DNA of 64,000 bases from a virus (lineage: Duplodnaviria; Heunggongvirae; Uroviricota; Caudoviricetes): IMG/VR virus record IMGVR_UViG_3300027733_000047; one strand, given 5' to 3'. The stretch's first letter is position 1. The number at the start of each line of letters is the position of its first letter. Below are positions 8,741 through 35,061 of this stretch, one piece after another. The notes under the pieces are model-generated. The model did no database searches. It was not told where the DNA came from and saw only the letters and a list, made by a program, of their open reading frames with translations. The position numbers were made by a program, and so were the translations under genes.

Positions 8741-8780
8741 CAAATATCGCATTAGTTTTTCAAACCACCAAATTTATTTT
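8741..8780 (-). promoter_or_regulatory. Bacteroidota sigma-A-type promoter (TTTGG-N19-TAnnTTTG on minus strand)
   Basis: Plus strand reads caaatatcgc...ccaaatttatttt; drives 7821..8687. Confidence 0.55.
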
Positions 8781-8823
8781 GAATTATTTTTAAAATAGTT
8801 ATACACATATTATTTTTTATAAT

Positions 8824-8836
8824 GTGAATAACTTTG
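8824..8836. promoter_or_regulatory. half-site TGTGAATAACTTT (reverse complement of the TTATTCACA DnaA-box variant)
   Basis: Same extended motif AAGTTATNCACA as the other copies. Confidence 0.3.
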
Positions 8837-8842
8837 CACCCT

Positions 8843-8948
8843 AAAAAAAATAGCGTGTAGGTTGGAGTATACTTCCCGCCATTGTTAGTGCCGTATGTCA
8901 TTCAAATTGACAATACAAATATAGGATAATAAATTGAAACTACCAAAT
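8843..8948 (-). ncRNA. mini-unit D (candidate sRNA)
   Basis: Minus strand TTTGG-N19-TATATTTG, then tattgtcaatttgaatgacatacggcactaacaatggcgggaagtatactccaacctacacgctaTTTTTTTT; near-identical 5' segment to unit B. Confidence 0.45.
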
Positions 8949-9004
8949 TTATTTTAAAAAAAAATGCCCTACATTTGTAAGGCATTTAATTCGTGTGCTG
9001 ATTA

Positions 9005-9162
9005 ACACTGATAAGTTATCGGTATTATCTCAAACGCTTCAATAAAACCAGTTTCTGCTTGTAACACTTCAACAAGTGCAAGAGCATCAACTCTGTGTTC
9101 AAATGCTTTGTGCATAATACCCGCACCATTTTCAAATACGAGCCAAATTGTTTTTTCCATAA
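9005..9162 (-). CDS. small hypothetical protein (52 aa)
   Basis: My translation MEKTIWLVFENGAG...; promoter 9170-9230. Confidence 0.35.
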
Positions 9163-9307
9163 TAGATTGTTTTAATTGTGAGATACAAATATAGGATTAA
9201 TAATTCAAACTACCAAATATTTTTTGAAGTATTTTTAAAATATTTTTTTGGTGGTCTGGAATTAATGTTGTATGTTTGCTTTGTTTAAATGAATAGGTTA
9301 AAAGATA

Positions 9308-9345
9308 ATCCCTGATGTGTCTACATCGGGGATACTTTTTATTTT
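9308..9345 (+). terminator. plus-strand hairpin plus T-run
   Basis: atccctgatgt-gtctac-acatcggggat (11-bp stem, one G-U) then tttttatttt. Confidence 0.5.
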
Positions 9346-9354
9346 GTATAAACT

Positions 9355-9381
9355 AAAAAACCCCACACTTTTGGTGTAGGG
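9355..9381 (-). terminator. intrinsic terminator of 9406..9669
   Basis: Minus strand reads CCCTACAC-caaaa-GTGTGGGG then TTTTTT. Confidence 0.6.
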
Positions 9382-9405
9382 AATTTATTCACAATTAAAC
9401 TAACT

Positions 9406-9669
9406 TTAACTTCGTAGATATGCAATATCTTTGTTATACTTTAATGTCTTGGCTTGGCTTGTGGTCAGTCCAACAAACTCTTGTGGTCTAAAACTAATTT
9501 CATCGGGATAGAATTCAAATAAAAATTCTTCAACCCCATTTTCAAGCGTAACATAAACCTTTGGCATATCATCAAAGAAACTCTTTGGCATTGCCGTAAT
9601 TCTTGCTGATACGATTTTTAATTCTTCTGCTAACATAATTTTATTTTTTGATTGTGAATGAATAAGCAA
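9406..9669 (-). CDS. hypothetical protein
   Basis: ORF; promoter motif 9661-9710; terminator 9355-9381. Confidence 0.6.
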   Translation of the reverse strand: MLIHSQSKNKIMLAEELKIVSARITAMPKSFFDDMPKVYVTLENGVEEFLFEFYPDEISFRPQEFVGLTTSQAKTLKYNKDIAYLRS

Positions 9670-9722
9670 ATTTAAGATTAATTTTCCACACTACCAAATA
9701 TTTTGCAAAGTTTTTTCAACCC

Positions 9723-9742
9723 ATGTACACAAAAGTGTATAT
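9723..9742. promoter_or_regulatory. palindrome ATGTACACAAAAGTGTATAT (copy 2)
   Basis: About 20 bp upstream of the -33 of the 9406..9669 promoter. Confidence 0.5.
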
Positions 9743-9826
9743 CGTGGAATTGATTGAGAGTCGCCCCATGCTCTCATGTATTGCCGTTCTTTGTTGCGTG
9801 GACTTTCGGCACATTAAACAATTCCA

Positions 9827-10168: not shown

Positions 10169-10317
10169 ATTATTTTATATTATCTATTAACCAAGCGATA
10201 AATTTGCCTAATGAAGTTACAAACCAAATAAACCCCAATGTAACAAAAAAGCCAATCCAAAATTCTTGAGTGTATAACATACTGCAAATATAAGATAATT
10301 TTTTGAATGTACCAAAT

Positions 10318-10539
10318 TTATTTTATGTTTGTTAATGGGTAAGCGTTGATAAACCTTTCAGTAACTAGCTCAAAATTTTCTTTATCTCTAGGGTAGTATT
10401 CATTAGCAACGGATTCTAAAGCTGCTTCTACGTGTAGTTTGGCAAACTCTTTCATTGCTTGTGGAACACTTTGTTCAAAAGTGTGTCCTTCTTGCCTATG
10501 ATAATTTTTTATAAATTCTTCTGCTGTTTGTATTTTCAT
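10318..10539 (-). CDS. hypothetical protein
   Basis: ORF; consensus promoter 10541-10583 abuts ATG. Confidence 0.6.
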   Translation of the reverse strand: MKIQTAEEFIKNYHRQEGHTFEQSVPQAMKEFAKLHVEAALESVANEYYPRDKENFELVTERFINAYPLTNIK

Positions 10540-10540: not shown

Positions 10541-10583
10541 CTGCAAATATAAGATTAATAATTGAATGTACCAAATTTATTTT
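10541..10583 (-). promoter_or_regulatory. consensus promoter abutting ATG (leaderless-type)
   Basis: ctgcaaatataagattaataattgaatgtaccaaatttatttt; -7 box ends 4 nt before ATG of 10318..10539. Confidence 0.6.
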
Positions 10584-10798
10584 TCAAATTCTTTTAGTGT
10601 TCTTAATGTTCGTTGTAATTCTTCCATATCACAACAAACTGCAACCCTTCTGCTAAATGGCAACCAAAAAAACCTATGATGTTTTACGACTACATAACCA
10701 ATCTCTAACTTACCTTCGTAGTTATATAATTGTTTATAATATGCGTAGTCATATTCGGTAAATGCTGAATTAAGTATTCTTTTTAATAATTTTTTCAT
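10577..10798 (-). CDS. hypothetical protein
   Basis: ORF; consensus promoter 10800-10842 abuts ATG. Confidence 0.6.
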   Translation of the reverse strand: MKKLLKRILNSAFTEYDYAYYKQLYNYEGKLEIGYVVVKHHRFFWLPFSRRVAVCCDMEELQRTLRTLKEFEK

Positions 10799-10799: not shown

Positions 10800-10842
10800 C
10801 TGCAAATATAAGATTAATAATTGAATGTACCAAATTTATTTT
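10800..10842 (-). promoter_or_regulatory. consensus promoter abutting ATG
   Basis: Identical motif to 10541-10583; drives 10577..10798. Confidence 0.6.
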
Positions 10843-11153
10843 GCACTTTTTACATTATTAAATTCAACAACTCCAATTGCTCGTCTAACCAATGTCAATG
10901 CTTTTTGGTCGTAGCCACCAATATGCCAATCTGTTATTCTATTTACATCACGATTATTTTTGTAGTCATATATTGTAGCCACAACTGATTGTCCGTGAAT
11001 GCCACCTAATATTGTCCAATGTGCCAATGATTTGTCGTAATTGGTTTCAGGTTTGCCCAATGTCATAACCAATTCTTGATAGGTTATATCCAAATAACCT
11101 TGTAAGTGTGTGCCGTTTATTCTTGTGCTAGGGTGATTAATTTTGAATGCCAT
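10836..11153 (-). CDS. hypothetical protein
   Basis: ORF; consensus promoter 11170-11203. Confidence 0.6.
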   Translation of the reverse strand: MAFKINHPSTRINGTHLQGYLDITYQELVMTLGKPETNYDKSLAHWTILGGIHGQSVVATIYDYKNNRDVNRITDWHIGGYDQKALTLVRRAIGVVEFNNVKSAK

Positions 11154-11169: not shown

Positions 11170-11203
11170 ACACAAATATAAGGATAATAATTCAATGTAC
11201 CAA
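11170..11203 (-). promoter_or_regulatory. consensus promoter
   Basis: cacaaatataaggataataattcaatgtaccaaatttattttt; drives 10836..11153. Confidence 0.55.
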
Positions 11204-11383
11204 ATTTATTTTTAAAATCTTTGTATCCTTGCCAAATGTTCTAATGCGTCTTTATAGGTATCTGCCCAAATACGATAGCCATCTAGTACATATAACTTTT
11301 TGCCATCTTCTCTTACTTGGATTGGTTGCGGTAAACTTGATTCGTTTTGCATTGTTTTTAATTTATAGATTATTTAATTTATT

Positions 11384-11507: not shown

Positions 11508-11566
11508 AATAGATTGTTTTTAATTGTGAGATACAAATATAGGACTATTTTTTGTATCTACCAAAT

Positions 11567-11800
11567 TTATTTTAAAGAAAAAGAAATTTCTTTTTTTAAT
11601 GGTTTATCTACATCATAATCTAACTTACTTAATACTTCAACTAATTTATCATTAGTTTTGTGTAACTGGTTTCTAATTTCTTCGATAGTGTAAACTTTAT
11701 CTAGGTCGTTTGTTTGGCTTTCGTCTTTTAGTAAGAATATATCTACATCAGCCATAGTAGATGCAATTAATGTTCTAATTGTAAGTAATTCGTTTTGCAT
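11567..11800 (-). CDS. hypothetical protein
   Basis: ORF; promoter 11821-11860 abuts ATG. Confidence 0.6.
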   Translation of the reverse strand: MQNELLTIRTLIASTMADVDIFLLKDESQTNDLDKVYTIEEIRNQLHKTNDKLVEVLSKLDYDVDKPLKKEISFSLK

Positions 11801-11820: not shown

Positions 11821-11860
11821 TAAATATAGGACTATTTTTTGTATCTACCAAATTTATTTT
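11821..11860 (-). promoter_or_regulatory. consensus promoter abutting ATG
   Basis: taaatataggactattttttgtatctaccaaatttatttt; drives 11567..11800. Confidence 0.55.
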
Positions 11861-12290
11861 AGATATTTACCAAAATAATTTCCGCTGATTGATACGATAT
11901 TTCGGGACTAACAAAAACTCCTTCCTTTTGGAATTTCCTTAATCTTGTATTTTCTTGTTTGGTAACTAAATTCCATATACCATACTTTGTAAGATAGATT
12001 TCTTTTAATTCATCTACACTATTAGGTGTTGTGTCCAGCAATATTTTACCAACTATTTTTCTTGGGTATTCGTGTTCTTTAACTCGTTTGTTCTTGGGTA
12101 ACTCCAATGCCTTCTCGCTTATCTTTCCGCTGAATGTTAATCTGTTTGTGGGTAGATAATATATTGCAGCACCAACGATTGTGGATAGAAATTCTTTTTG
12201 GTATTCAGTTGATGTGTCGTAACTTTGTTTTAGATTAACTAAAAGATTAAATACCGATTCAAACTTTTGTTCTGTTTTATTCATACGCAA
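11859..12290 (-). CDS. hypothetical protein
   Basis: ORF; promoter 12291-12330. Confidence 0.6.
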   Translation of the reverse strand: MRMNKTEQKFESVFNLLVNLKQSYDTSTEYQKEFLSTIVGAAIYYLPTNRLTFSGKISEKALELPKNKRVKEHEYPRKIVGKILLDTTPNSVDELKEIYLTKYGIWNLVTKQENTRLRKFQKEGVFVSPEISYQSAEIILVNI

Positions 12291-12316: not shown

Positions 12317-12350
12317 AAAAAAAAAGGAAAGTTTTTTTAGGACTTTCCCT
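12317..12350 (-). terminator. intrinsic terminator of 12367..12912
   Basis: Minus strand reads GGAAAGT-cctaaaaaa-ACTTTCC then T9. Confidence 0.65.
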
Positions 12351-12912: not shown

Positions 12913-13057
12913 TTTATTTGTTTTTAATTGTGAGATACAAATATAATACAATAAATTCAAACTACCAAATTTATTTTGAATTATTTTAAAGTTTTTTTAA
13001 AAAAGCTCCCGATATAGAAATATCGGGATTGATTATTGAATGAAAAAAAGAACTATT

Positions 13058-13255: not shown

Positions 13256-13319
13256 AATATATGTTTTTTAATTGTGAGATACAAATGTACGATTATTTTT
13301 TGAATGTACCAAATTTATT

Positions 13320-13577
13320 TTAATAATATTTTGCATAACCCGTCCAAAACCAAACTGAAATTCCTGCAAATATAGACGTAGCAACGATTGTAAACACTCT
13401 ATTATTTTTTCTTTGTTTCTTTAACTTCAACGAATATTGTTGTTTGTATATTACACTATCCGTTATTTTTGAACGAACTGACATATAAAGGTCATTACGT
13501 TTTTGGTAATAGGACGTGTCTTGTGCATTTGTGCTGAAACTGAATAAGATTGCGATTGCAAAGAATAATTTTTTCAT
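13320..13577 (-). CDS. small secreted/membrane protein
   Basis: Signal peptide MKKLFFAIAILFSFSTNAQ; promoter 13590-13640. Confidence 0.55.
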   Translation of the reverse strand: MKKLFFAIAILFSFSTNAQDTSYYQKRNDLYMSVRSKITDSVIYKQQYSLKLKKQRKNNRVFTIVATSIFAGISVWFWTGYAKYY

Positions 13578-13788
13578 CTTTATTTGTTTTTAATTGTGAG
13601 ATACAAATATAGGACTATTTTTTGGAAATACCAAATAAAATTGCAACTAAATATGAAAAAGTTATTAGTGTAAGGAATACATTATTCATCACTCCAATTT
13701 CGGATTCCTCGCCTATGTTGTTTAATATAAAACCACCCACCAATAATACTATTATAATTGCGTGAAATAAACGTAAATTTTTCATTTT

Positions 13789-14273: not shown

Positions 14274-14325
14274 TGTTAATTAGTTTAGAATGTAAATATA
14301 GTACTATTTTTTCAAACTACCAAAT

Positions 14326-14679
14326 TTATTTTAATTTTTCTGCTAATTCTTTAATTACTTTAAAATCAAATTCTTGACAACCAACGATTACTTTTTTTGT
14401 CTGCTTATCAATAATCGCAGTATAATCACAATTTAACTTAAAATTACTTCGCGTAGTATTTTCAAGCAAATCAATCATTTCTTCAATGCTAACCACATTA
14501 TAACCATCACCACTAACCGAGCCAACGATTTCATTACGATTACTATTGTATTGAAAATGCTCCCAACCATTACTTTTTTCGCCAAAATAATTCTCACATA
14601 CATCAATACCTCTTTGCTTTGCGATAGTAAACAACCAACCAATTAATTTATCATTTTTTACTCTAACTGAATATATCAT
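14326..14679 (-). CDS. hypothetical protein
   Basis: ORF; promoter 14690-14745. Confidence 0.6.
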   Translation of the reverse strand: MIYSVRVKNDKLIGWLFTIAKQRGIDVCENYFGEKSNGWEHFQYNSNRNEIVGSVSGDGYNVVSIEEMIDLLENTTRSNFKLNCDYTAIIDKQTKKVIVGCQEFDFKVIKELAEKLK

Positions 14680-14730
14680 AATTTTTAATTTAGAATGTAA
14701 ATATAGTACTATTTTTTCAATCTACCAAAT

Positions 14731-15117
14731 TTATTTTAGAATTTCTTCAAAATTATTTTTGGTAATGTTTTCGCTTTCTGCTTTCTTGTCAATCATTAAA
14801 TAAACATCACTCAAAAACTTTTCCTTTATCCCTTCGTTCTTTTCGCTTTCAGCAATGTAATAGGTTAGATAATCTAATACTTCTCTTTTGATATTCCATT
14901 TAACCCCTCTACAATCGTAATAGAAACGACTGCCGTCTTCATTCATTCCACGTTTACCTACCAACACACGCTTAACTCTATCTTCACGCTTTTTTTGTTC
15001 GTGGTGTGCCTTAAATTGATTAAGTGTATTTTCACTGCAAAATCCTGCCATTATAGATATCTTTGCAAAATCCATTGCCAATTCATCTGTCCATTTAAAA
15101 CTTGGTTTGTAACCCAT
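14731..15117 (-). CDS. hypothetical protein
   Basis: ORF; promoter 15130-15185. Confidence 0.6.
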   Translation of the reverse strand: MGYKPSFKWTDELAMDFAKISIMAGFCSENTLNQFKAHHEQKKREDRVKRVLVGKRGMNEDGSRFYYDCRGVKWNIKREVLDYLTYYIAESEKNEGIKEKFLSDVYLMIDKKAESENITKNNFEEILK

Positions 15118-15384: not shown

Positions 15385-15527
15385 CTTAATTAATTTAGAA
15401 TACAAATATAGCAAATTAAATTCAAACCACCAAATATTTTTTAAACTTTTTTTATACTTCGCCAAAAGTATATTAGATTAGATAGTTTTGGCGAGTTATA
15501 AATTATTTTAAAAATAATTGCACAAAT

Positions 15528-15627
15528 ATTTGGTAGTGTCAATTATTATTACGATATTTGTATTGTCAATGTATGACAGACGATTCGCTCGGTAGGTATA
15601 CTCCAACCTACGCCATATTTTTTTTAG
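15528..15627 (+). ncRNA. mini-unit C (candidate sRNA)
   Basis: TTTGG(15528)-N19-gATATTTG, then tattgtcaatgtatgacagacgattcgctcggtaggtatactccaacctacgccataTTTTTTTT. Confidence 0.45.
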
Positions 15628-15703
15628 GGTATATATAAAAAAATCCCCATATAAACATATAGGGATTATAATTGATACTTTATCAACTATGATAGACAAA
15701 TTC

Positions 15704-15916: not shown

Positions 15917-15990
15917 TGTTTAAAGTTTAATTGTGATTAATAGAATACAAATATCGCAATAATAATTCAAACTACCAAATTTATTTAATA

Positions 15991-16024
15991 AAAGTTATCC
16001 ACATTTTTAGTGTGGATAACCTTT
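15991..16024. promoter_or_regulatory. inverted pair of perfect DnaA boxes (TTATCCACA 15995-16003 / TGTGGATAA 16011-16019) forming a 13-bp-stem hairpin
   Basis: aaagttatccacatttttagtgtggataaccttt; between the 16034..16612 stop and the next promoter. Confidence 0.5.
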
Positions 16025-16612: not shown

Positions 16613-16854
16613 TGTTTAATTGTTTAATTGTGAATAATAGAATACAAATATCGCAATAATAATTCAATCTACCAAATTTATTTTGGATATTTTTGAATAT
16701 TTTTTTCTATCATATAACTTCTTGCTTTTATGCACACGATTATACGATACACGACCTGCTTCCAATTCCAACTGGCGATTAACTTTGCGTAGTAATTTGT
16801 CGGTAGATAGTTTCATAATAGCAAATATACTATTATATTTTCAATCCACCAAAT

Positions 16855-17118
16855 TTATTTTGATAATCTTTTTAAATCTTCTTCAAACTCTCTCATCATC
16901 TCGTCAAAATCATATACCTTGTTACCAGCATCATCAAGGTAGTAATACACTCCAACCTCAATGGTTTGTTCAGCGATGGGTTCTCTATTGATAGTTGGTA
17001 ATACATCTTGAAGTAGGTTGATAGCCGTTCCCAACTTTACATTGCCGTAACCCGTTCTGTCTTCAAGTGTGTGCAAAAGGTCTAATGCTTTGGATAATAT
17101 GTCTTTATTTGATTTCAT
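16855..17118 (-). CDS. hypothetical protein
   Basis: ORF; promoter 17125-17163 with TGTACAC palindrome just upstream. Confidence 0.6.
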   Translation of the reverse strand: MKSNKDILSKALDLLHTLEDRTGYGNVKLGTAINLLQDVLPTINREPIAEQTIEVGVYYYLDDAGNKVYDFDEMMREFEEDLKRLSK

Positions 17119-17178
17119 ATCGCAAATATAAGATTAAAAATTCAATGTACCAAATTTATTTTCTCGCGCTCGCGTGTG

Positions 17179-17690: not shown

Positions 17691-18060
17691 AGTTAATTTG
17701 TTTTAATTGTGAGATACAAATATAAGATTAATTATTCAAACTACCAAATATTTTTTGAATTATTTTTTAGATTAATTAGTTTAAAAAAAGAAGGCAAGGT
17801 AGAAACCTCGCCTCGTTTTTAATCCGTACCCTATAAAAACTAACTTTTCAGTTAATCAATGCGAATATACTAAACTAAAAAGAAAATGTCAAGTATATGT
17901 AAATTATTTTTTTTGCAGAATAAAACTGCCTCGCCTTCGGTAGCAAACCCACTATTCAGCAGTTGACCGTTTTGGTTATGTATTGCAAACCAACCCTCAC
18001 ATTCGTATATTATAACTTTCATAATGCAAATATAATGCTTTATTTTTAGATTACCAAATT

Positions 18061-18357
18061 TTATTCCCCACCATAATAAACTTTATAGTATCTTTCATCA
18101 CCTATCAATTCACTTGTAAAGTGTTGCATTCTACCTGTATATTCATTTGGCGAACGTCTTACGATTTGAAATTCAAGGTTTTTACCTTCAAATACTAATT
18201 CCAGCTTTTCTCTTACTTCACTTGCAAATTCCTTGTCTATATACAATTCAGTTGTACGCTCACCTTTATCCAAATTGTTTTGAATTTGCTGAATTTGTTT
18301 TTCAAACAATCTATTAATTGTTTCTTCCCTTGCTGATTTGTTTAGTTTAAATTCCAT
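18061..18357 (-). CDS. hypothetical protein
   Basis: 98-aa ORF. Confidence 0.55.
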   Translation of the reverse strand: MEFKLNKSAREETINRLFEKQIQQIQNNLDKGERTTELYIDKEFASEVREKLELVFEGKNLEFQIVRRSPNEYTGRMQHFTSELIGDERYYKVYYGGE

Positions 18358-18560: not shown

Positions 18561-18594
18561 AAAAAATAGTGGGACTTTCACCCACTTGTTTTTT
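18561..18594. terminator. bidirectional terminator downstream of 18610..19395
   Basis: agtggg-actttca-cccact flanked by T/A runs on both strands. Confidence 0.6.
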
Positions 18595-25385: not shown

Positions 25386-25435
25386 TATATTAATTTTAGA
25401 TTGTGAATAGCAAATGTAAGATTATATTTTCAAAC

Positions 25436-25473
25436 TACCAAAAAAAAAGGTAAGAATTTTCTTACCTTTTTTA
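25436..25473. terminator. bidirectional terminator downstream of 25491..25757
   Basis: aaaaaaaaaggtaaga-atttt-cttacctttttt. Confidence 0.65.
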
Positions 25474-25757: not shown

Positions 25758-25794
25758 AATTAAATTGTTTTTAGATTGTAAATATAGGACTATT

Positions 25795-26028
25795 TTATGA
25801 AACCACCAAATTATTTGTAAAAAATTTATACATTTTTGGTGTATAAATTACTTTACTTTCGCCATTGATAACTTGTACTACCTTTAAATATGTTGGTTTA
25901 CCAAATTCATCAAACCTCTGGTGCATATCAACAATACGTGTTATCATATCTTCGGCATTACGTGTTTGAGTTACATAAGTAACAGTTATACCACATTGTG
26001 AGTGGACTTCGTATTTTGTTTTTGTCAT
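25795..26028 (-). CDS. hypothetical protein
   Basis: 77-aa ORF. Confidence 0.5.
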   Translation of the reverse strand: MTKTKYEVHSQCGITVTYVTQTRNAEDMITRIVDMHQRFDEFGKPTYLKVVQVINGESKVIYTPKMYKFFTNNLVVS

Positions 26029-26905: not shown

Positions 26906-26935
26906 AGTAATTAAGTTTAGATAGCAAATATAGTA

Positions 26936-27355
26936 TTAAAAATCGAATCTACCAAATTTATTTTTATCTTTTAATGAACCTTCAACGACAGCATACATTC
27001 CATAATCAACGGTAATGATTTCACCAATACGTTTGTTATCAACGTCCCAATTATTCCACACCCAATGTGGCTGTTTTCTTGGATTGTAACTTAACTTATC
27101 TTTAACCCAAACCTTCTCAAATTTTTCAAATCTAATTTCAATGCTATCACATATCACCCACGCACATACGTCTTTATTCTCGCCATTGAATATCTTCTCG
27201 GCTGTCTTACGATTGTTCTTTAACTGACAGCCCTTCATAATCAGTTGAACATCACATGGACTATGATATTCAACTCCAGTTTTACTCCATATCTTCCACT
27301 TCATGTAGTTTTTACCTTTGCCTAAATTGAAACGAACTTTGATTTTGTTTTGCAT
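26936..27355 (-). CDS. hypothetical protein
   Basis: ORF; promoter 27370-27420. Confidence 0.6.
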   Translation of the reverse strand: MQNKIKVRFNLGKGKNYMKWKIWSKTGVEYHSPCDVQLIMKGCQLKNNRKTAEKIFNGENKDVCAWVICDSIEIRFEKFEKVWVKDKLSYNPRKQPHWVWNNWDVDNKRIGEIITVDYGMYAVVEGSLKDKNKFGRFDF

Positions 27356-27413
27356 GATTGATTGGTTTAGAAGACAAATATAATCCTATTTATTCAAACT
27401 ACCAAATTTATTT

Positions 27414-27932
27414 TTAAAATCTTTTGTGATATTGGTTTTGTTCCATAATATAAATAATATCTCTTAATGCTCCTTTAAGGTCATCACCATTACGATAGAT
27501 AGGTATAACAAAATTAACAAATCCGTGTCTTGAACTACCTTCACGCAAAAAGTTTTCATCACAAGTTGTTCCGTTAACTTTATACTTCTCATACAACTCA
27601 CCTAACCCCTTAAATTGTTTAGATTCGTAATAACCCAAATTGCTTGACCTAAACTTAATACCTTCCTTATTTACACCGAATGAGAATGAGCCATACCAAC
27701 TACTACCTACACTTCTTTTCATACGAATAATTACACTATCTTGGTCATCAAGAACTTCGTAATTGGTTTGGAATACTCTATCCAAATCATAAATCAGTTG
27801 AAGGGCAAATCCTTTGTTTGCTTTTATTTCATCAATGGCTTTTAGTTTTTCGCTGTCCATTGCATCAAAAAATAGATTGTTGTAATTGTAATTCATTGCT
27901 TTTAGTTTTAGATTATTTAAAGTAGAATGCAA
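27414..27932 (-). CDS. hypothetical protein
   Basis: 172-aa ORF; promoter 27935-27975. Confidence 0.6.
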   Translation of the reverse strand: MHSTLNNLKLKAMNYNYNNLFFDAMDSEKLKAIDEIKANKGFALQLIYDLDRVFQTNYEVLDDQDSVIIRMKRSVGSSWYGSFSFGVNKEGIKFRSSNLGYYESKQFKGLGELYEKYKVNGTTCDENFLREGSSRHGFVNFVIPIYRNGDDLKGALRDIIYIMEQNQYHKRF

Positions 27933-27968
27933 ATATAAAACTATATTTGCAAACTACCAAATTTATTT

Positions 27969-28280
27969 TTAGATACAACCCAAATGTCCACTTGGCTTAC
28001 ACATCATTTTTAATGTTTCATTTGTAAACCCGTCATTGGCTTGTTTCTGTTTAAACCCCTCCAATAACTCTCTTGCAATCTTTTGTGATTGTTCGTTTCT
28101 GCCGTCTGTTCTATACTCAACACTGGCACAATGTTCTAACCATTGTAAGCATAACTTTGTAAATGACTGCTGTAATGTCCTGTGCTCACATGACATTGCT
28201 TCGCAGAATTCTTTACCTTTGTCGTTGAAGGTGTTAACGTAATCGCTAACTTCCTGTACTAATTCTTTTGTTTGTTTCAT
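27969..28280 (-). CDS. hypothetical protein
   Basis: ORF; promoter 28295-28345. Confidence 0.55.
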   Translation of the reverse strand: MKQTKELVQEVSDYVNTFNDKGKEFCEAMSCEHRTLQQSFTKLCLQWLEHCASVEYRTDGRNEQSQKIARELLEGFKQKQANDGFTNETLKMMCKPSGHLGCI

Positions 28281-28337
28281 GTTTTAAAGTTTAGATTGCA
28301 AATATAATCCTATTTTTAATACCATACAAATTTATTT

Positions 28338-28793
28338 TTAAATTGTTGTAATCATTACGTATTGACTATCTTTGGTTAATTCATTTAAAACCAATAATTC
28401 ATCTATGAATGGTTGATAACTACCCCAAGTGATTAACCCTTGTAGTTTTATTTCTTCATCTACTTCACCCAATATGGCTTCAAAGACATCACTGGAATAC
28501 ATTGATTCCTCTAACATATCATCAATATCTGTAAAACTTTCTCTACCCTTTAATTCATTTAATAACTTATCACTTAACTGATGATTAGGTATTTGTATTA
28601 TCTTTAACTCGTTAAGGTGATAATCTCTACCAAAAGGTACGATGCTACCGCCAAACATCTTGGCTTTCTTTGTGGCTTCACGTCTTGTATATAACATCGG
28701 GTCTATCGTTTCATAGCCACCCAAATAATCACCAGCAATTTGGTCAGGCCTTGCTGTGTGTCCTTCGTTTAATCTTACTCGATATAATTGCAT
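28338..28793 (-). CDS. hypothetical protein
   Basis: ORF; promoter 28810-28850 with palindrome 28865-28886 upstream. Confidence 0.6.
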   Translation of the reverse strand: MQLYRVRLNEGHTARPDQIAGDYLGGYETIDPMLYTRREATKKAKMFGGSIVPFGRDYHLNELKIIQIPNHQLSDKLLNELKGRESFTDIDDMLEESMYSSDVFEAILGEVDEEIKLQGLITWGSYQPFIDELLVLNELTKDSQYVMITTI

Positions 28794-28809: not shown

Positions 28810-28850
28810 CAAATATAGGGTTATTTTTGTTGCCAACCAAATTTATTTTT
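28810..28850 (-). promoter_or_regulatory. consensus promoter
   Basis: acaaatatagggttatttttgttgccaaccaaatttatttt; drives 28338..28793. Confidence 0.55.
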
Positions 28851-28886: not shown

Positions 28887-28964
28887 AAAACACAGATGCC
28901 GTTATCTCTAACGGCACCCATGAATCATCAATCTAAAACTAAAAACAAAAAACAAAAAGCAATA

Positions 28965-29531: not shown

Positions 29532-29695
29532 AATATTATGTTTTAGTGTTTGTGAAAATAATCGTAAATGTCAACAACGCAGTTAAATATTAGCATAGCC
29601 ATAATGATAGTACCTAAACCCAATAAGCACCATACCACAAATACTTCGCTGTCGTGTCTTTGTCTTTCTCTATTGTTCATAACGCAAATGTAAGA

Positions 29696-30253
29696 TTAAA
29701 AAATGAATTTACCAAAACTATCTTTTCTTAAACATAATTGAGATAGATTTGTATTTAATATTGTTTCACCTTGGCTATCCAATTCTTTAATTTTTTTTGT
29801 CACATACTCTCTACCATCAACCCTATTTAAGATTTGTTCAAGCGTATATCCCTTCCAACTCAACATCTTATATCCGTTTTCGTTGAAATTTTTGCTATAA
29901 CATATACCCTTAAGCATATCTTTAGCCAACTTCTTTTTATGTTTCTCAATCTTTTTCTTATTGGATATAGCATATACCACTTCATTAATCCAATGTTCAA
30001 GATTACTTTTAATCTCAATAGTTCTTTCACCATAGGTTACAAACTTTGAAGGTAAGGTCTTGCAATACTCCTCTGCTTGTGCAATAATAGGTCGTAACTC
30101 AATAGAATACGCATTATAAAAGGTACAACCACCTCTGCCGTCATTATTAGCATAGGCAACCTTCTTACCATTAACATACAAATCTGCTTTGAACATCAGC
30201 GTTTCTTCGCTGAACGCTTCATTAATCTTTACGTTTTTTAATTCTAATTTCAT
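29696..30253 (-). CDS. hypothetical protein
   Basis: 185-aa ORF; promoter 30270-30315. Confidence 0.6.
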   Translation of the reverse strand: MKLELKNVKINEAFSEETLMFKADLYVNGKKVAYANNDGRGGCTFYNAYSIELRPIIAQAEEYCKTLPSKFVTYGERTIEIKSNLEHWINEVVYAISNKKKIEKHKKKLAKDMLKGICYSKNFNENGYKMLSWKGYTLEQILNRVDGREYVTKKIKELDSQGETILNTNLSQLCLRKDSFGKFIF

Positions 30254-30312
30254 ATTATTTAAGTTTTAGAATACAAATATAAGAAAAAATTTGTTACAAA
30301 CCAAATTTATTT

Positions 30313-30660
30313 TTAATTATCCCAATCATTATAATCACCGTCCTCCAGCGCCTCTAATATCCCTATTAAGATATCCAAAGGTAAATCATCGTAGTTATGT
30401 TCCGATTGGAACTCCAACCAGTAATCATTATCTCCAGTATCAATATGTACCTTACCCGATTCACCGTCAACCCTCTTAACACAATGATTCGTTTGGTCGT
30501 CAACTACGATATAGATTAACGGTGTATGTAATTCAATCACCCTAACATCATTACTCAAAAACATACTCTTGATGTCATTCATGATATCAATCCTTAAATC
30601 TAATATCGCCCTTTTGTATTCTGTACTTTTCATATATAACTTTTTAATAATAATAAGCAA
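30313..30660 (-). CDS. hypothetical protein
   Basis: 115-aa ORF. Confidence 0.5.
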   Translation of the reverse strand: MLIIIKKLYMKSTEYKRAILDLRIDIMNDIKSMFLSNDVRVIELHTPLIYIVVDDQTNHCVKRVDGESGKVHIDTGDNDYWLEFQSEHNYDDLPLDILIGILEALEDGDYNDWDN

Positions 30661-31000: not shown

Positions 31001-31025
31001 GATTTATTTTTTTACAAATATAAGA

Positions 31026-31388
31026 TTAAATTTCCGTTTCAACAAATTTATTTTCATAAACTTGTCGTAGCCCGCCGTAACCAATTGGAATCCCGCCGTT
31101 GCCCCACTGAACATCACCCTCGTTGTAATCATCCATGTTACCCTTAACCAATGAAATAAACATATCGTATGCCTCCTTCATTACCTGACTGTCATTACCG
31201 TACATAACATAAAATCCAAATAGATTTTGTTTTGGCTGTCCAACAAATACAATCTTATAACTATCACCGTACTTATGCACGCTTGCTCTGTTCTTGAACC
31301 CTGAATAACTTATTGGTTTGTTTGTACTCAAATTAATCAACCCTAACAATTTTAAATTGTCAACCAACTGCTCATTACTTAACTTCAT
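31026..31388 (-). CDS. hypothetical protein
   Basis: 120-aa ORF. Confidence 0.55.
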   Translation of the reverse strand: MKLSNEQLVDNLKLLGLINLSTNKPISYSGFKNRASVHKYGDSYKIVFVGQPKQNLFGFYVMYGNDSQVMKEAYDMFISLVKGNMDDYNEGDVQWGNGGIPIGYGGLRQVYENKFVETEI

Positions 31389-32239: not shown

Positions 32240-32300
32240 TGTTTTATGTTTTAAATTTATGAATACGCAAATATAATACTAATTTTGGTAACTACCAAAT

Positions 32301-32564
32301 TTATTTTTCTGTCTTATCATATCTTATATAAGATATCCAATACTGCTCCAAATCTATCATTTGATTATTACACAAATCCATGAAATCACTTAGGGTAATA
32401 ATATCAATATCATTAGGTATCGCTGTTTCTAATTGATGTATGTCATACAGGTTATTCTCAACCTTCTCAGCAAACCCTCTCCTGTCATACTCATCAATCG
32501 GTATCAATAATATTCTCGTTTCAATATTCATAGCCTTAATGTTTAGATAGCAAATATAAGACAA
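32301..32564 (-). CDS. hypothetical protein
   Basis: ORF; promoter 32550-32595. Confidence 0.55.
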   Translation of the reverse strand: MSYICYLNIKAMNIETRILLIPIDEYDRRGFAEKVENNLYDIHQLETAIPNDIDIITLSDFMDLCNNQMIDLEQYWISYIRYDKTEK

Positions 32565-32605
32565 CTTTTGTTATCAACCAAATTTATTTTAATAAAAAAA
32601 AGATT

Positions 32606-32690
32606 TTTTTATTCCAAAATATAATCCTATATTTGCATAGCAATCATGCAAGACGACTACAAATCGGGAGGTATACTCCAACCTACCCCT
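32606..32690 (+). ncRNA. mini-unit H (candidate sRNA, no T-run)
   Basis: TATATTTG, then catagcaatcatgcaagacgactacaaatcgggaggtatactccaacctacc; shares gacgactacaaatcggga(a/g)gtatactccaac with unit E. Confidence 0.3.
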
Positions 32691-32691
32691 A

Positions 32692-32730
32692 TTTGCTAAA
32701 TTCTTTAGTACTTGCTAAAATCTTTAGTAT
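32692..32730. promoter_or_regulatory. two tandem TTGCTAAA-N3-TTTAGTA palindromes
   Basis: tttgctaaattctttagta / cttgctaaaatctttagtat directly after mini-unit H. Confidence 0.4.
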
Positions 32731-32745
32731 TGGATAAAACAAAAA

Positions 32746-32773
32746 AAGTTATTCACATTGCTGTGAATAACTC
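32746..32773. promoter_or_regulatory. inverted pair TTATTCACA / TGTGAATAA (DnaA-box variant) hairpin
   Basis: aagttattcacattgctgtgaataactc, 12-bp stem. Confidence 0.45.
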
Positions 32774-32804
32774 TTTCGGATTTTAAAGCGGGTTTTTCTA
32801 TATG

Positions 32805-33701
32805 TTAAGCAAGGCTCAACTCGTTTAAAGCAAATTCAAAACTTGCTTGGTTTTTCTTATACGATGTACCAACCAACATGTTTTCCCAATCACCATTTAC
32901 ACGCTTGGGTGCTTTTCTCTCATGTGTTGTCCATGATGTAACACCACTGTGTAACCCCCACATGTTCATTCCCTTCTGCTCCATTTCCTTATTGATGTGT
33001 GTGTATAAATCATCCATGATGTTAATCGACTTTTGTGTTAACTTGTCGAATTCAGCAATGCTGGTAATTACTCTATCATAACCCAATACACTCTTAACCA
33101 TTTTATCGGCTAATCCTTTTGATACTTCTGTAGATACAAATCTACGATATCTCTCAACTTGGCGAAGGCTCTCACCTAATGCTGTTTCAATCAGGGAAGG
33201 AATCGATTTGATTTTCTCATTCAATGTCGCTGTATGTCTAAACTTCGCGTTACCTTCTCTATAGAAACGGAAAAACTGATTCATACAACTCATAGTCAAA
33301 TCACCAATACCAACACTTAACCCTGTACTACCATCATTGCTGTCTATGATTGTAACATAACGTTTGATGATGTCATCACCTACTTTGCTGTCACCTTCGA
33401 TAGCCAACTGCATAAACACCCTACGACCACCATTGATACTTCCAGCCTTGGATACAGTTAACTCACTACCAAACTTCTCCATACCGCGTAATACCATCTC
33501 AACCACATCTGCATTCTGCGATACAGTATAACCTTCTTTTACTGTATTGATACACTCATTCGTTGAACTGTTAAATAAACCGTAATACGGTGTTATCATT
33601 TGCTCACCTTGGTTATTGTGCGCAATCAAGGGCGCTTTCTCAATAGTGAAATCTAAACCATGTACAGATAAAATGTCTTGTACTTTCTCATTGTAATTCA
33701 T
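32805..33701 (-). CDS. DUF932-like phage/plasmid protein
   Basis: 298 aa; IIDSNDGSTGLSVGIGDLTMSCMNQF resembles DUF932 core; paralog of 7821..8687; promoter 33730-33770. Confidence 0.45.
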   Translation of the reverse strand: MNYNEKVQDILSVHGLDFTIEKAPLIAHNNQGEQMITPYYGLFNSSTNECINTVKEGYTVSQNADVVEMVLRGMEKFGSELTVSKAGSINGGRRVFMQLAIEGDSKVGDDIIKRYVTIIDSNDGSTGLSVGIGDLTMSCMNQFFRFYREGNAKFRHTATLNEKIKSIPSLIETALGESLRQVERYRRFVSTEVSKGLADKMVKSVLGYDRVITSIAEFDKLTQKSINIMDDLYTHINKEMEQKGMNMWGLHSGVTSWTTHERKAPKRVNGDWENMLVGTSYKKNQASFEFALNELSLA

Positions 33702-33787
33702 AACTTTAATTTTTTTAAGTGATTAATAGAATGCAAATATACTATTAAATTTAATGCCAACCAAATATAATCTTATTTATTTTAAAA

Positions 33788-33973
33788 TTATTTTTCAGTA
33801 TAGATAAACTTAACCTTGCTACCTTGTTTGGTATTTGGCTCCAATTTATCTATATTTGTCCAGCCCCACTTCCATTCAACCTTGGTGGCACCAACCCAAC
33901 CAATGGTACGAAGGAATCTACCGTATTGGTTTACTACATATAATCTGTCACCTACTTTGATATCTTTTACCAT
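33788..33973 (-). CDS. hypothetical protein
   Basis: 61-aa ORF overlapping stop of next gene. Confidence 0.45.
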   Translation of the reverse strand: MVKDIKVGDRLYVVNQYGRFLRTIGWVGATKVEWKWGWTNIDKLEPNTKQGSKVKFIYTEK

Positions 33974-34188
33974 TCTACTTTAAATTTATCTAATGTGTCT
34001 AAATATACAATCTCATAATTCAAGCAAATATACTCTCTATTATCCATTTCACTATCCAACCATACTTTGATTATACCTACAGGCCTATCATCAACATACA
34101 GGGTAACCTCGGGCTCACCTTCATCTTGATATGATAATTGTTTGTAATCTTTGAACCTGACTTCCGTTTCTTCCTTGATACGTTTCAT
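33967..34188 (-). CDS. hypothetical protein
   Basis: ORF; promoter variant 34192-34235; palindrome 34238-34260 upstream. Confidence 0.5.
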   Translation of the reverse strand: MKRIKEETEVRFKDYKQLSYQDEGEPEVTLYVDDRPVGIIKVWLDSEMDNREYICLNYEIVYLDTLDKFKVEW

Positions 34189-34237
34189 ACAGCAAATGTA
34201 ATTTTAATTATTCAAATAAACAAATCTATTTTTATAA

Positions 34238-34260
34238 GGGGTACACAATTGTGTACACCC
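34238..34260. promoter_or_regulatory. palindrome GGTACACAATTGTGTACACC (copy 7)
   Basis: Abuts the promoter of 33967..34188. Confidence 0.5.
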
Positions 34261-34262
34261 AC

Positions 34263-34988
34263 CTATATAGCAATGGCAAACCCTGTGGTAAATGCTACCT
34301 TATTATCAGCACCTTTGCCTGTTTGGTTTTTATACTTCAAACCAACTATAACACCCTGTTCGTCCAGAAAACGTAAATCAGTTTCATCACCGTTAACTAC
34401 TCTATAACCGTTATACGTTTCAGGTAACTTATTAAATACCATGGCTACATTATAACCTTTCTTTAATACCGCCATGGCATGTTTGTCGTTATCTTCACTC
34501 CTGCTAAAGGTTAAATGATAATTGCTAGGCATGGACCCGTCAAACCTTTTAGGATTCTTGGTATAATCATAAAATTGTATATCAGGATATAATTCGAAAA
34601 TATTCTTACCTTCACGTATCTTTAATTTTTCCCAACGTATATCACTAGTACCGTTTAACCTGAATACTGGTATTGCTTTACCTTCATGTTTTTTGATAGC
34701 TTTGCTCACCTCTAAATCTAATTGAGCTAAAAACTCTTTGCGATTGGCTAAATACCATTCAGTTTTATTACGACGACCTTCCTGAACTGTATCGTACATC
34801 CCACCAAACCCTGACTTAAATAAACAGGCCGATGAACACCCTGAACTAGCATGTGGACATAAATTAACACCCTGACTATTATCAGTATAAGGTGACATGT
34901 ACATAATATAGGTTATATAACCTAATTTAGCACCTTTGATTGTTTTGTGGTTGTTTGTGGTTAACAACGTACTTTTGTAGTAAGACAT
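34263..34988 (-). CDS. hypothetical Cys-cluster protein
   Basis: 241 aa; CPHASSGCSSAC cluster; promoter 35000-35055. Confidence 0.6.
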   Translation of the reverse strand: MSYYKSTLLTTNNHKTIKGAKLGYITYIMYMSPYTDNSQGVNLCPHASSGCSSACLFKSGFGGMYDTVQEGRRNKTEWYLANRKEFLAQLDLEVSKAIKKHEGKAIPVFRLNGTSDIRWEKLKIREGKNIFELYPDIQFYDYTKNPKRFDGSMPSNYHLTFSRSEDNDKHAMAVLKKGYNVAMVFNKLPETYNGYRVVNGDETDLRFLDEQGVIVGLKYKNQTGKGADNKVAFTTGFAIAI

Positions 34989-35061
34989 AAGCTTTAATGT
35001 TTTAGATTAAGAAAGTACAAATGTATGGCTATTTTTGATACGTTCCAAATTTATTTTGCCT

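Follow-up and report, generated by a model that had tools for sequence, protein, structure and literature searches.

A host-type promoter module shared by dozens of small genes in a putative Bacteroidota phage appears to serve as a joint for cassette exchange

Introduction

The early promoters of phage T4 and the terminal-repeat module of SPO1 share one design, in which many strong promoters for the host polymerase serve small non-essential genes lying in one orientation. The T4-type phages RB49/phi1, PST and nt-1 carry promoter-early stem-loops (PeSLs), with 51-52 strong early promoters of the sigma-70 type per RB49/phi1 genome and, locally, 8 in ~5 kb (PMC2839356, PMC4122927); excised mini-circles during infection are a further feature of PeSL cassettes. 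Here we describe an array of promoter modules in a 64,000-nucleotide stretch of viral DNA (Caudoviricetes; IMG/VR record IMGVR_UViG_3300027733_000047), the whole of which is called the window below. A first-pass annotation of this DNA had proposed about 50 monocistronic mini-operons, each with a host-type promoter fused to its start codon. The explanation that we consider probable differs from it in part: the region would be a hyperplastic accessory block of a large uncultured phage with a Bacteroidota host, in which small ORFan genes would mostly carry their own ~45-bp promoter cassette, read by the host primary sigma factor. In 12 genes the A of AUG would be the first transcribed base, while 38 genes would have a leader with AAA at -13 to -11 and A at -3; transcripts would form nested, co-terminal read-through families in blocks of 1-13 genes; and recombination between modules would delete, insert or replace cassettes, each gene keeping a working promoter.

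Of the systems described so far, the PeSLs come closest to the array, which resembles them in its dozens of near-identical, predicted strong host-type promoters with an A/T-rich upstream tract (51 in 26 kb), and in the position of these elements directly upstream of small ORFans in hyperplastic regions. As with PeSLs, a cassette that is flanked by two copies of the element in one of two related phages is matched by a single copy in the other, and crossovers fall within the element, between the A/T-rich tract and the ATG. The array differs from them in its grammar, which is the -33/-7 of Bacteroidota and not the sigma-70 -35/-10. The 3' end of a PeSL holds a Shine-Dalgarno (SD) sequence and the start codon. 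In the array no SD sequence is seen, and the ATG either adjoins the module or is set apart from it by an A-rich leader, with leaderless geometry in a quarter of the genes; the upstream stop codon often lies inside the module. The defining stem-loop, which in PeSLs serves as terminator or attenuator, is present in only 2 (at most 4) of the 51 modules, and the cassettes would not be transcriptionally insulated. The mean fold z-score of the modules is -0.17, with z < -2 in 4/51 and strong folding in two (27930, 20417); by these scores the candidate reading of the modules as stem-loop-bearing PeSLs was rejected for 47/51. The array matches the PeSLs in every respect tested except the stem-loop and the SD sequence, and we do not class it as a PeSL array. 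Timing and function are experimental for T4 and SPO1, but for the array they are only inferred.

The design is thus recognisable as the promoter-cassette shuffling of T4-type phages; new are its Bacteroidota implementation, the leaderless class and the natural-variant evidence of promoter copies as recombination joints. Our literature searches turned up no report of promoter arrays, PeSL-like cassettes or leaderless genes for phages of this phylum.

A repeated module with host promoter geometry

The primary sigma factor promoter of Bacteroidota consists of TTTG at -33 and TAnnTTTG at -7 (PMC6847099, PMC7366714, PMC9723704). In Flavobacterium johnsoniae the -7 box was refined to TAHHTTTG (PMC6847099) and placed at -12 to -5 (PMC9723704), and in Flavobacterium transcription starts 4-5 nt past this box (PMC6847099, PMC9723704). 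Genome-wide, the -33 box of host promoters is weak or undetectable (PMC6847099).

The window contains 55 matches to the pattern TTTGG-N17-21-TAnnTTTG where 1.10 are expected, and none of 100 dinucleotide-preserving shuffles gave more than 4; the repeated module that the first-pass annotation had noticed is therefore present far above chance. A weight matrix finds 51 minus-strand copies within 26.3 kb, from 8741 to 35018 (the last ends at 35058), 2 copies in 35.1-47.3 kb and 0 in 47.3-64 kb; real copies score 30-53 and no shuffled sequence exceeds 10. At 1.9 modules per kb the array is about three times as dense as the densest of 82 other viral loci scored with the same matrix. Promoters of the E. 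coli -35/-10 type show no enrichment in the window (127 vs 111, 90 vs 94).

The extended consensus reads AAAATAAA-TTTGGTAG-N16-TATATTTG-C/T. In it, AAAATAAA is an upstream element rich in A, TTTGGTAG an extended form of the -33 box and TATATTTG the -7 box; the 16-nt spacer is A/T-rich and often ends in TAATCT. The plus-strand form given in the first-pass annotation, CAAATATAnGAyTAA ... ACCAAATTTATTTT, is the reverse complement of AAAATAAATTTGGT...TTArTCnTATATTTG. A motif logo of the aligned copies, a check that had been suggested, displays invariant TTTG and TA..TTTG at 19-nt spacing with no G at the "nn" positions. TTTGG is invariant and the box spacing is 19 nt in nearly all copies (32-nt matches); all 42 seed copies contain TA..TTTG, with T/C/A and A, never G, at the variable positions, and a few weight-matrix copies read TATATTTA or GATATTTG at the -7 box. 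The module thus has the geometry of the Bacteroidota sigma-A promoter, is oriented with the genes and lies directly before start codons, as proposed. It shares with that promoter the two boxes, their spacing, the exclusion of G and the A/T-rich spacer, and differs from it in the invariant TTTGG and in further conserved flanks (AAAATAAA upstream, GGTAG after TTTG) that exceed the host consensus and make it a "super-consensus".

A strict 24-base form of the module occurs in 8 stretches among 185,579 species genomes, 7/8 of them in metagenome-assembled genomes (MAGs) of Bacteroidota, and in 82 stretches of IMG/VR. In cultured phages, the matches that span most of the module fall in unannotated intergenic regions, and the hosts are Elizabethkingia, Riemerella, Bacteroides, Chryseobacterium and Cellulophaga, so that genome and cultured-phage matches alike point to Bacteroidota. 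Elizabethkingia phage TCUEAP1, Chryseobacterium phage MA9V-1 and Cellulophaga phage phi4:1 are examples; in TCUEAP1 the module stands between a terminator hairpin and a small hypothetical gene. Many unrelated phages, including some of 40-50 kb, also carry it. The core of the module is host-type, and its extended super-consensus is typical of phages, not of bacterial chromosomes. By analogy with other Bacteroidota, we take it as probable that the module would act as an optimised promoter for the host primary sigma factor.

The array (8741-35058, minus strand) comprises 51 modules and 67 minus-strand open reading frames (ORFs) of at least 30 aa, with transcription predicted to run from right to left. 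The module precedes 50 of these 67 ORFs, and the first-pass claim that it precedes almost every small gene has to be reduced by the other 17. The contrast drawn with the operon-style block at 36-47 kb stands: the median intergenic gap is 6 nt at 35-47 kb and 58 nt in the array. The modules are listed below with the gene that follows each; the gap is the distance between the final G of the -7 box and the ATG, and indel numbers refer to differences from the relative L115 treated further on.

8741-8781 (-): next gene 8687-7821 (DUF932, 288 aa), start 53 nt downstream
8916-8956 (-): assigned to 49-aa ORF 8901-8752 (14 nt); likelier drives a ~70-nt non-coding unit, 8833-8916, with T8 end
9186-9226 (-): gap 25 nt; gene 9160-9002 (52 aa); terminators on both sides
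9667-9707 (-): gap 30 nt; gene 9636-9406 (76 aa)
10285-10325 (-): gap 4 nt, leaderless geometry, CAGTATG; gene 10280-10170 (36 aa, membrane span)
10544-10584 (-): gap 4 nt, leaderless geometry; gene 10539-10318 (73 aa); 51-nt exact run in common with module 10803
10803-10843 (-): gap 4 nt, leaderless geometry; gene 10798-10577 (73 aa)
11173-11213 (-): gap 19 nt; gene 11153-10836 (105 aa)
11534-11574 (-): gap 26 nt; gene 11507-11382 (41 aa, lipoprotein-like signal); right-hand partner, indel 8
11821-11861 (-): gap 20 nt; gene 11800-11567 (77 aa); cassette absent in L115
12288-12328 (-): gap 3 nt, leaderless geometry; gene 12284-11859 (141 aa); -33 box fused to the T-run of terminator 12326-12348
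12938-12978 (-): gap 25 nt; gene 12912-12367 (181 aa); terminators on both sides
13282-13322 (-): gap 26 nt; gene 13255-13058 (65 aa)
13604-13644 (-): gap 26 nt; gene 13577-13320 (85 aa, signal-peptide-like)
14293-14333 (-): gap 19 nt; gene 14273-13989 (94 aa); right-hand partner, indel 7
14698-14738 (-): gap 18 nt; gene 14679-14326 (117 aa); cassette absent in L115
15141-15181 (-): gap 23 nt; gene 15117-14731 (128 aa)
15403-15443 (-): gap 18 nt; gene 15384-15184 (66 aa)
15948-15988 (-): gap 31 nt; gene 15916-15704 (70 aa)
16645-16685 (-): gap 32 nt; gene 16612-16034 (192 aa)
16822-16862 (-): gap 5 nt, leaderless geometry; gene 16816-16664 (50 aa)
17123-17163 (-): gap 4 nt, leaderless geometry; gene 17118-16855 (87 aa)
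17717-17757 (-): gap 26 nt; gene 17690-17493 (65 aa); extra 87-aa cassette here in L115 (indel 6)
18027-18067 (-): gap 4 nt, leaderless geometry; gene 18022-17870 (50 aa)
18521-18561 (-): gap 4 nt, leaderless geometry; gene 18516-18361 (51 aa)
19433-19473 (-): gap 37 nt; gene 19395-18610 (261 aa, ParB-like PHROG); terminators on both sides
19968-20008 (-): gap 26 nt; gene 19941-19564 (125 aa)
20417-20457 (-): gap 38 nt; gene 20378-20007 (123 aa); strong internal stem-loop, -17.5 kcal/mol, z = -6.1
20734-20774 (-): gap 32 nt; gene 20701-20453 (82 aa)
21234-21274 (-): gap 13 nt; gene 21220-20807 (137 aa)
21893-21933 (-): gap 33 nt; gene 21859-21404 (151 aa); 46-nt exact run in common with module 22173
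22173-22213 (-): gap 4 nt, leaderless geometry; gene 22168-21926 (80 aa)
22840-22880 (-): gap 4 nt, leaderless geometry; gene 22835-22668 (55 aa), then promoterless 22664-22467 and 22451-22206
23586-23626 (-): gap 20 nt; gene 23565-22879 (228 aa)
24301-24341 (-): gap 20 nt; gene 24280-23624 (218 aa)
24749-24789 (-): gap 19 nt; gene 24729-24334 (131 aa, DUF6915); right-hand partner, indel 2
25411-25451 (-): gap 25 nt; 32-aa fragment 25385-25287, copy of the leader and ~23 first codons of gene 25164-24760
25779-25819 (-): gap 21 nt; gene 25757-25491 (88 aa)
26925-26965 (-): gap 19 nt; gene 26905-26702 (67 aa), then three promoterless genes
27375-27415 (-): gap 19 nt; gene 27355-26936 (139 aa); right-hand partner, indel 1
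27930-27970 (-): gap 33 nt; gene 27896-27414 (160 aa); cassette absent in L115; internal stem-loop, -16.8 kcal/mol, z = -6.2
28299-28339 (-): gap 18 nt; gene 28280-27969 (103 aa)
28810-28850 (-): gap 16 nt; gene 28793-28338 (151 aa)
29685-29725 (-): gap 4 nt, leaderless geometry; gene 29680-29543 (45 aa, membrane span)
30274-30314 (-): gap 20 nt; gene 30253-29696 (185 aa)
31015-31055 (-): gap 14 nt; gene 31000-30644 (118 aa)
32268-32308 (-): gap 28 nt; gene 32239-31418 (273 aa, DUF1281_C)
32551-32591 (-): gap 19 nt; gene 32531-32301 (76 aa)
33734-33774 (-): gap 32 nt; gene 33701-32805 (298 aa, DUF932)
34193-34233 (-): gap 4 nt, leaderless geometry; gene 34188-33967 (73 aa)
35018-35058 (-): first of the array; gap 29 nt; gene 34988-34263 (241 aa, GP88 family)

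Outside the array, the minus-strand modules 4376, 6221 and 6684 have a normal upstream half (AAAATAAATTTGGT...) and, instead of TAnnTTTG, TAAATTGC or TAAATTAC in the -7 region. Two of the three fit a TAnnTTGY variant, which is motif SM5 of F. psychrophilum (PMC9723704).

Two predicted translation formats

Each module was paired with the first ATG that opens a downstream ORF, which gave 50 pairs. The gap between box and ATG is bimodal: it is 3 nt in one gene, 4 nt in ten and 5 nt in one, no gene falls between these and 13 nt, and 38 genes lie at 13-38 nt. The range of 3-20 nt given by the first-pass annotation is accordingly too narrow, and the leaderless architecture that it had ascribed to the whole array applies to 12/50 genes (ATG 3-5 nt past the -7 box), the other 38 having predicted leaders. 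The 12 starts with leaderless geometry are 34188, 29680, 22835, 22168, 18516, 18022, 17118, 16816, 12284, 10798, 10539 and 10280; ATG is the start codon in 12/12, and most of them reuse one stereotyped junction, TATATTTG-CAGT-ATG. With the G of the -7 box at -5 and the start site 4-5 nt beyond it, an ATG that follows after a 4-nt gap would have its A at +1. By this reckoning, with the start-site rule and the leaderless mode taken over from other Bacteroidota, the 12 genes would give true leaderless mRNAs.

Leaderless mRNAs make up 5.5% of F. psychrophilum mRNAs (PMC9723704), and in B. thetaiotaomicron 3.7% of the 5' untranslated regions (UTRs) are <10 nt, with a mode of 23 nt (PMC7366714). The array genes resemble such host messages in having the ATG where the -7 box predicts the transcription start, and differ from them in frequency, 24% of promoter-bearing genes (12/50; P = 1.3e-5 against the F. 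psychrophilum rate), and in the reuse of one stereotyped junction. The 4-nt peak recurs at modules of unrelated viral contigs, where 23/120 gaps are 3-5 nt. Between the window and L115, 7/7 orthologous leaderless gaps are unchanged, whereas leadered gaps drift by 1-5 nt at 9 modules; the gap of module 27930 differs by 14 nt, owing only to its being the chimeric module of indel 1.

The remaining 38/50 genes have predicted leaders of 9-34 nt, of ordinary length for the phylum and without an SD sequence. When they are aligned on the ATG, 84-97% have an A at each of the positions -13, -12 and -11, and 84% have one at -3. In F. johnsoniae, AAA at -13 to -11 and A at -3 raise translation, as found by ribosome profiling and reporter mutagenesis. 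The A-tract is a translation signal and not a part of the promoter, because its distance to the ATG is constant whatever the length of the leader.

SD-like 4-mers precede 0/134 genes of the array and the 36-64 kb block (67 of them in the operon block), the two regions scanned, against a background of 6.6% in random 15-nt windows. The absence of SD sequences had been put down to lack of room; it is a phylum trait and not a feature of the array architecture, because they are absent also in the operon block, where room exists. Disuse of the SD sequence is a general property of Bacteroidota (PMC6847099).

Terminators and expected read-through

With a simple rule of a hairpin followed by a T-run, which leaves factor-dependent termination outside the count, the array has ~13 minus-strand sites for 51 promoters:

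8962-8987 (-): terminator-like hairpin and T-run
9361-9381 (-): terminator-like hairpin and T-run
12326-12348 (-): terminator-like hairpin; T-run enters the -33 box of module 12288
13007-13028 (-): terminator-like hairpin and T-run
15642-15667 (-): terminator-like hairpin and T-run
15995-16019 (-): hairpin, inverted pair of TTATCCACA boxes, weak T tail
17791-17814 (-): terminator-like hairpin and T-run
18568-18586 (-): terminator-like hairpin and T-run
19515-19536 (-): terminator-like hairpin and T-run
25196-25218 (-): G+C-rich hairpin, weak T tail, between the 32-aa fragment and gene 25164-24760
25443-25472 (-): terminator-like hairpin; T-run enters the -33 box of module 25411
28891-28922 (-): terminator-like hairpin and T-run
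32742-32777 (-): terminator-like hairpin with inverted TTATTCACA boxes and T-run

The three hairpins that the first-pass annotation had cited as examples (12317, 18561 and 25436) exist, at 12326-12348, 18568-18586 and 25443-25472. Its rule of one promoter and one terminator per gene does not hold: ~5 units only have terminators on both sides (modules 25411, 19433, 15948, 12938 and 9186), and the terminators divide the array into blocks of 1-13 genes with 1-10 promoters each. Most junctions from stop codon to next ATG are 37-66 nt long and wholly taken up by the module. At 30/50 junctions the upstream stop codon lies inside the next module, where it may be a TAA within AAAATAAA (n = 11), a TAA starting the A-tract (n = 10) or a spacer TAA/TAG 13 nt before the end of the -7 box (n = 5). 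Since promoters outnumber terminators about fourfold and the module takes up most junctions, strong read-through is expected, and from the sequence the transcripts should form nested, co-terminal families that are mostly not monocistronic. Of the 17 ORFs without a module, 16 follow their neighbour by -7 to 43 nt; the exception, 25164-24760, follows a 122-nt gap that holds the hairpin 25196-25218.

Junctions at which the module supplies the upstream stop codon include 10577-10584, 16664-16685 and 8752-8781; in some cases it also encodes the C-terminal residues of the preceding protein, as in proteins ending ...KINLVD and ...NKFGGLKN.

Apparent cassette exchange between related phages

A look-up with the ParB-like protein found a relative, L115 (JGI 3300045484, a 72.9-kb contig), which covers window positions 29395-8610 and is 87-95% identical to it in the main collinear blocks. 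A metagenome scan with the same protein gave only two short contigs, one of which, L107, is 95.7% identical to the window over 2.9 kb. Between L115 and the window, the presumed sigma contacts (TTTGG and TA..TTTG) are 98.8% identical, the other aligned positions 94.7% (P = 2.5e-5) and the spacer 91.3%. L107 keeps 6/6 modules, with substitutions only in the spacer or the 4-nt gap.

BLAST blocks delimit 11 junctions at which the gene content of the window and L115 differs by gain, loss or replacement of cassettes. Both edges lie within ~50 nt of a -7 box at 6/11 junctions and one edge at 3 more; since the zone from -45 to +25 around modules makes up 14.7% of the sequence, the probability of six double matches is P ~4e-8. 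At those six junctions there is either an overlap of 49-92 nt between the flanking blocks, in the genome without the cassette, or a replaced segment with a module at each end. Five junctions were compared three-way and in register, setting the left module, the right module and the single module of the other genome against each other. In four the crossover lies inside the module and gives a seamless chimera, and in the fifth (25385-24760) it lies in the leader; seamless in-register chimeras argue for homologous exchange. The four chimeric modules, each with its crossover inside the module, belong to:

27896-27414 (-): 160-aa gene
17717 (-), site of module: 87-aa gene present only in L115
14679-14326 (-): 117-aa gene
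11800-11567 (-): 77-aa gene

The three leaderless cassettes at 10798-10170 are absent from L115, where the same leaderless module joins straight onto the start codon of a 113-aa gene that is promoterless in the window, and two 80-aa genes are permuted between the genomes. Neighbouring modules of the window have exact runs of 32-51 nt in common, and their spacers are more similar (0.62) than those of distant modules (0.55), the observed value being reached in 0/5000 permutations. The near-identical modules appear to act as portable homology patches where related phages swap cassettes.

Compared with window 24341-22879, L115 3600-5550 holds a diverged (70-77% identical) tandem extra copy of the pair of 218-aa and 228-aa genes and adds an 88-aa gene, each extra gene with its own module. 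At 25164-25451, a copy of the leader and ~23 first codons of gene 25164-24760 (~85% identical) follows promoter 25411, and is itself followed by ~120 nt of unrelated DNA with a G+C-rich hairpin and then by the intact gene without a promoter of its own; this segment is wholly absent from L115 and, from its sequence, resembles a scar left by recombination or insertion. For the sister contigs L083 and L085, an apparent two-gene replacement was rejected as a gene-calling difference on 99.99% identical DNA.

Weighing of the explanations

The first-pass model, taken literally, holds that ~50 insulated monocistronic units form an early takeover or anti-defence arsenal transcribed by the unmodified host polymerase. 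It accounts for the per-gene promoters, the 12 genes with leaderless geometry and the ~5 terminator-bounded units, and small ORFans are usual for early accessory genes of large phages. We nevertheless regard it as distinctly unlikely, given that 38/50 genes have 13-38 nt between box and ATG with a positioned A-tract, that 13 terminators serve 51 promoters across 37-66-nt junctions filled by the module, that 17 ORFs are promoterless and that takeover or anti-defence functions find no support in homology. A polymerase modified or directed by the phage (through a sigma-like factor, an appropriator or covalent modification), for which timing need not be immediate-early, would explain why conservation extends beyond the host consensus to AAAATAAA and GGTAG, and why the exact extended module is far commoner in viral contigs than in bacterial genomes. 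The invariant and most conserved positions, however, are exactly the host -33 and -7 contacts, the A-rich upstream tract resembles UP-like elements of strong host-dependent phage promoters (PMC2839356), and the same module recurs in many unrelated phages, including the 40-50-kb ones. No sigma or polymerase gene was noticed in ~73 kb, where a minority of the genes were scanned and most genes have no detectable homology. We hold this possibility to be unlikely.

Cassette gain, loss and replacement at repeats, and the scars of duplicated promoter, leader and N-terminus, would also suit an integron-like system in which the repeats are the mobility sites of a dedicated recombinase and their resemblance to promoters is secondary. 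The crossovers, however, are seamless and fall at varying points of module and leader, as in general homologous recombination; orientation, fixed distance to the ATG and selective conservation of the sigma contacts are promoter properties, and no integrase-like gene was seen in the window, so that we judge such a system very unlikely. Integron cassettes and morons do resemble the array in that single genes move with their own expression signal. Morons, however, bring unrelated promoters and terminators and insert by illegitimate recombination, and integrons use attC sites, an integrase and one common promoter, whereas in the array the common promoter is itself the homology. That the array is an artefact of assembly or annotation, or arose by chance, might be entertained for an A/T-rich motif in a genome of 30-34% G+C known from metagenomic data; with 1.1 shuffled against 55 real matches, independent identical assemblies and modules conserved in diverged relatives, the probability of this is negligible.

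Host-type promoter cassettes with two translation formats, read-through and recombination at the modules thus remain the probable explanation, and several points weigh against it. Promoter function and the +1 position are carried over from other Bacteroidota and not taken from this phage, early timing of expression would follow from the T4 analogy, and the predominance of the extended consensus in viral over bacterial sequence (82 vs 8 stretches) may reflect a phage-encoded factor that prefers it. Hairpins without a T-run at 34241, 21337-21381, 17181, 20782 and 35076, and Rho-dependent termination, are outside the terminator count. The case for recombination consists of two metagenomic assemblies, in which repeats of 40-51 nt could cause chimeric joins; such joins are argued against by the recurrence of the window arrangement in several independent samples and by L115 itself, which differs by 5-10% throughout and has genes of its own. 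Viable indels must moreover be intergenic, which here mostly means within a module, and survival of such breakpoints could partly explain the coincidence.

More tentatively, Bacteroidota phages may have independently evolved a ~45-bp element with four jobs, namely super-consensus promoter, upstream stop, downstream start context (including the zero-UTR leaderless one) and homology patch; gene flow would then be channelled through the promoter, and the same promoter would drive a multi-copy family of ~65-nt small RNAs with a GTATACTCC core shared by several phages. We put this forward as possible, if doubtful. The promoter and translation rules of Bacteroidota phages are almost undescribed, and 51 natural variants of one predicted strong promoter with two translation formats offer a parts list for Flavobacterium and Bacteroides genetics. 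Promoter-mediated shuffling has been documented only in T4-type phages of Proteobacteria; its appearance under a different promoter grammar supports a general route by which large phages renew accessory genes. For annotation, the module can help to call small ORFs and fix start codons, and the absence of SD sequences should not be over-interpreted.

Gene products of the array

Among 30 array proteins tested (87-228 aa), 27 match no PHROG family and the other three match families of unknown function. The Pfam matches in the array are GP88, DUF932, DUF1281_C, DUF6915 and a weak Phage_L5_gp82, with no assigned function; a literature check for a link between DUF932 and anti-defence gave nothing usable. 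Inspection by eye and a hydropathy scan pointed to a single lipoprotein-like peptide, of 41 aa (11507-11382), to a signal-peptide-like protein of 85 aa (13577-13320) and to four small proteins with a membrane span. The several signal-peptide peptides of 40-50 aa announced by the first-pass annotation thus shrink to the lipoprotein-like one, the other signal-like protein being 85 aa long. By analogy with the hyperplastic regions of T4-type phages, a role in early takeover or anti-defence is plausible.

A small non-coding unit and other repeats

Eight copies of a ~60-70-nt unit without an ORF occur in the window, each with a -33/-7 promoter and two hairpins of variable sequence:

4775-4853 (-): small-unit copy
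5660-5735 (+): small-unit copy
6290-6368 (-): small-unit copy
6787-6862 (+): small-unit copy
7458-7535 (+): small-unit copy
8833-8916 (-): small-unit copy
15560-15635 (+): module and ~70-nt small unit (GTATACTCC core, T8 run), antisense to the array in the wide gap 15704-15384
32635-32710 (+): module and small-unit copy in the wide gap 32805-32531

The conserved core reads CGG.A.GTATACTCCA..CTAC, and 6/8 copies end in a T7-8 run; GTATACTCC has 8 occurrences against 0.34 expected in the window. A fixed-spacing pattern gave no match in viral contigs, and a looser one located the core downstream of a promoter of the same type in other viral contigs, with 9 stretches in 7 contigs; copies lie in L006, L024 and L124-L130. 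The unit has no Rfam match. MAFFT with RNAalifold gave no consensus structure, the variable hairpins not being alignable by sequence; in single-sequence folds the hairpins persist despite their different sequences. On these sequence features the unit is a candidate multi-copy phage small RNA, and it probably makes the 49-aa ORF 8901-8752 spurious. A weak plus-strand module at 9247-9333 (score 18.7, end of -7 box 9278) is followed ~30 nt on by a strong hairpin and T-run (9308-9333), and is possibly the source of another short antisense transcript in a wide array gap.

The palindrome GTACAC-N4-GTGTAC has 8 copies (at most 1 mismatch) against 0.08 expected:

7378, 9725, 17181, 21337, 28869, 34241, 35550 and 35922: GTACAC palindrome, 16 nt each

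Five of these precede the A-tract of a module by ~8-25 nt (P34193, P28810, P17123, P9667 and the plus-strand P7458), and the palindrome could be an operator for a phage regulator or a hairpin without T-run. Hairpins formed by inverted pairs of TTATCCACA-like boxes, which we take to be the E. coli DnaA-box consensus, occur at 15995-16019, 32749-32770, 35076-35096 and 20782-20800, just past the stop codons of four genes, with a single box at 6912; they may be terminators, DnaA-type binding sites or both.

Source of the window and neighbouring genes

The window has a G+C content of 27-37% and its coding lies nearly all on the minus strand. It has no tRNA genes and no Rfam families at the gathering threshold (weak chance-level matches only), and megablast with 12 kb and 21 kb of it found no near relative in a reference collection of 50,697 phage records. 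Its proteins, which include thymidylate synthase, GP88, DUF932, a WDGH-domain protein and the ParB-like PHROG, indicate a phage, and one DUF932 protein has its best relatives in phages of Flavobacterium psychrophilum (54% identity). Exact-protein look-ups showed that the same DNA recurs, 99.8-100% identical and ungapped, in several independent environmental assemblies, one of which is the 75-kb JGI contig 3300027734 Ga0209087_1000028. Within the roughly 73 kb seen there are no structural or replication core genes, and the contig is possibly incomplete; the lack of structural genes over such a length suggests a large phage.

Between the operon-style block and the array is an 870-bp gene-free stretch of higher G+C (35100-35970). 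A 214-aa gene with a weak HNH_3 match borders it immediately upstream, and two GTACAC palindromes fall within it; as a structured RNA it was rejected (fold z = -0.9, no Rfam match). The 47-64 kb block encodes NAMPT/NAPRTase, a phosphoribosyltransferase, NADAR, ThyA, a SET domain protein and a glycosyltransferase. Within 58629-61307 the nicotinamide phosphoribosyltransferase apparently comes in two pieces, an N-terminal one of 276 aa (60477-61307) and a NAPRTase one of 259 aa (58629-59408). The DNA between them holds a 63-aa ORF and, on the opposite strand, one of 245 aa (59762-60499), and a GIY-YIG/NUMOD endonuclease gene (62108-62896) lies nearby.

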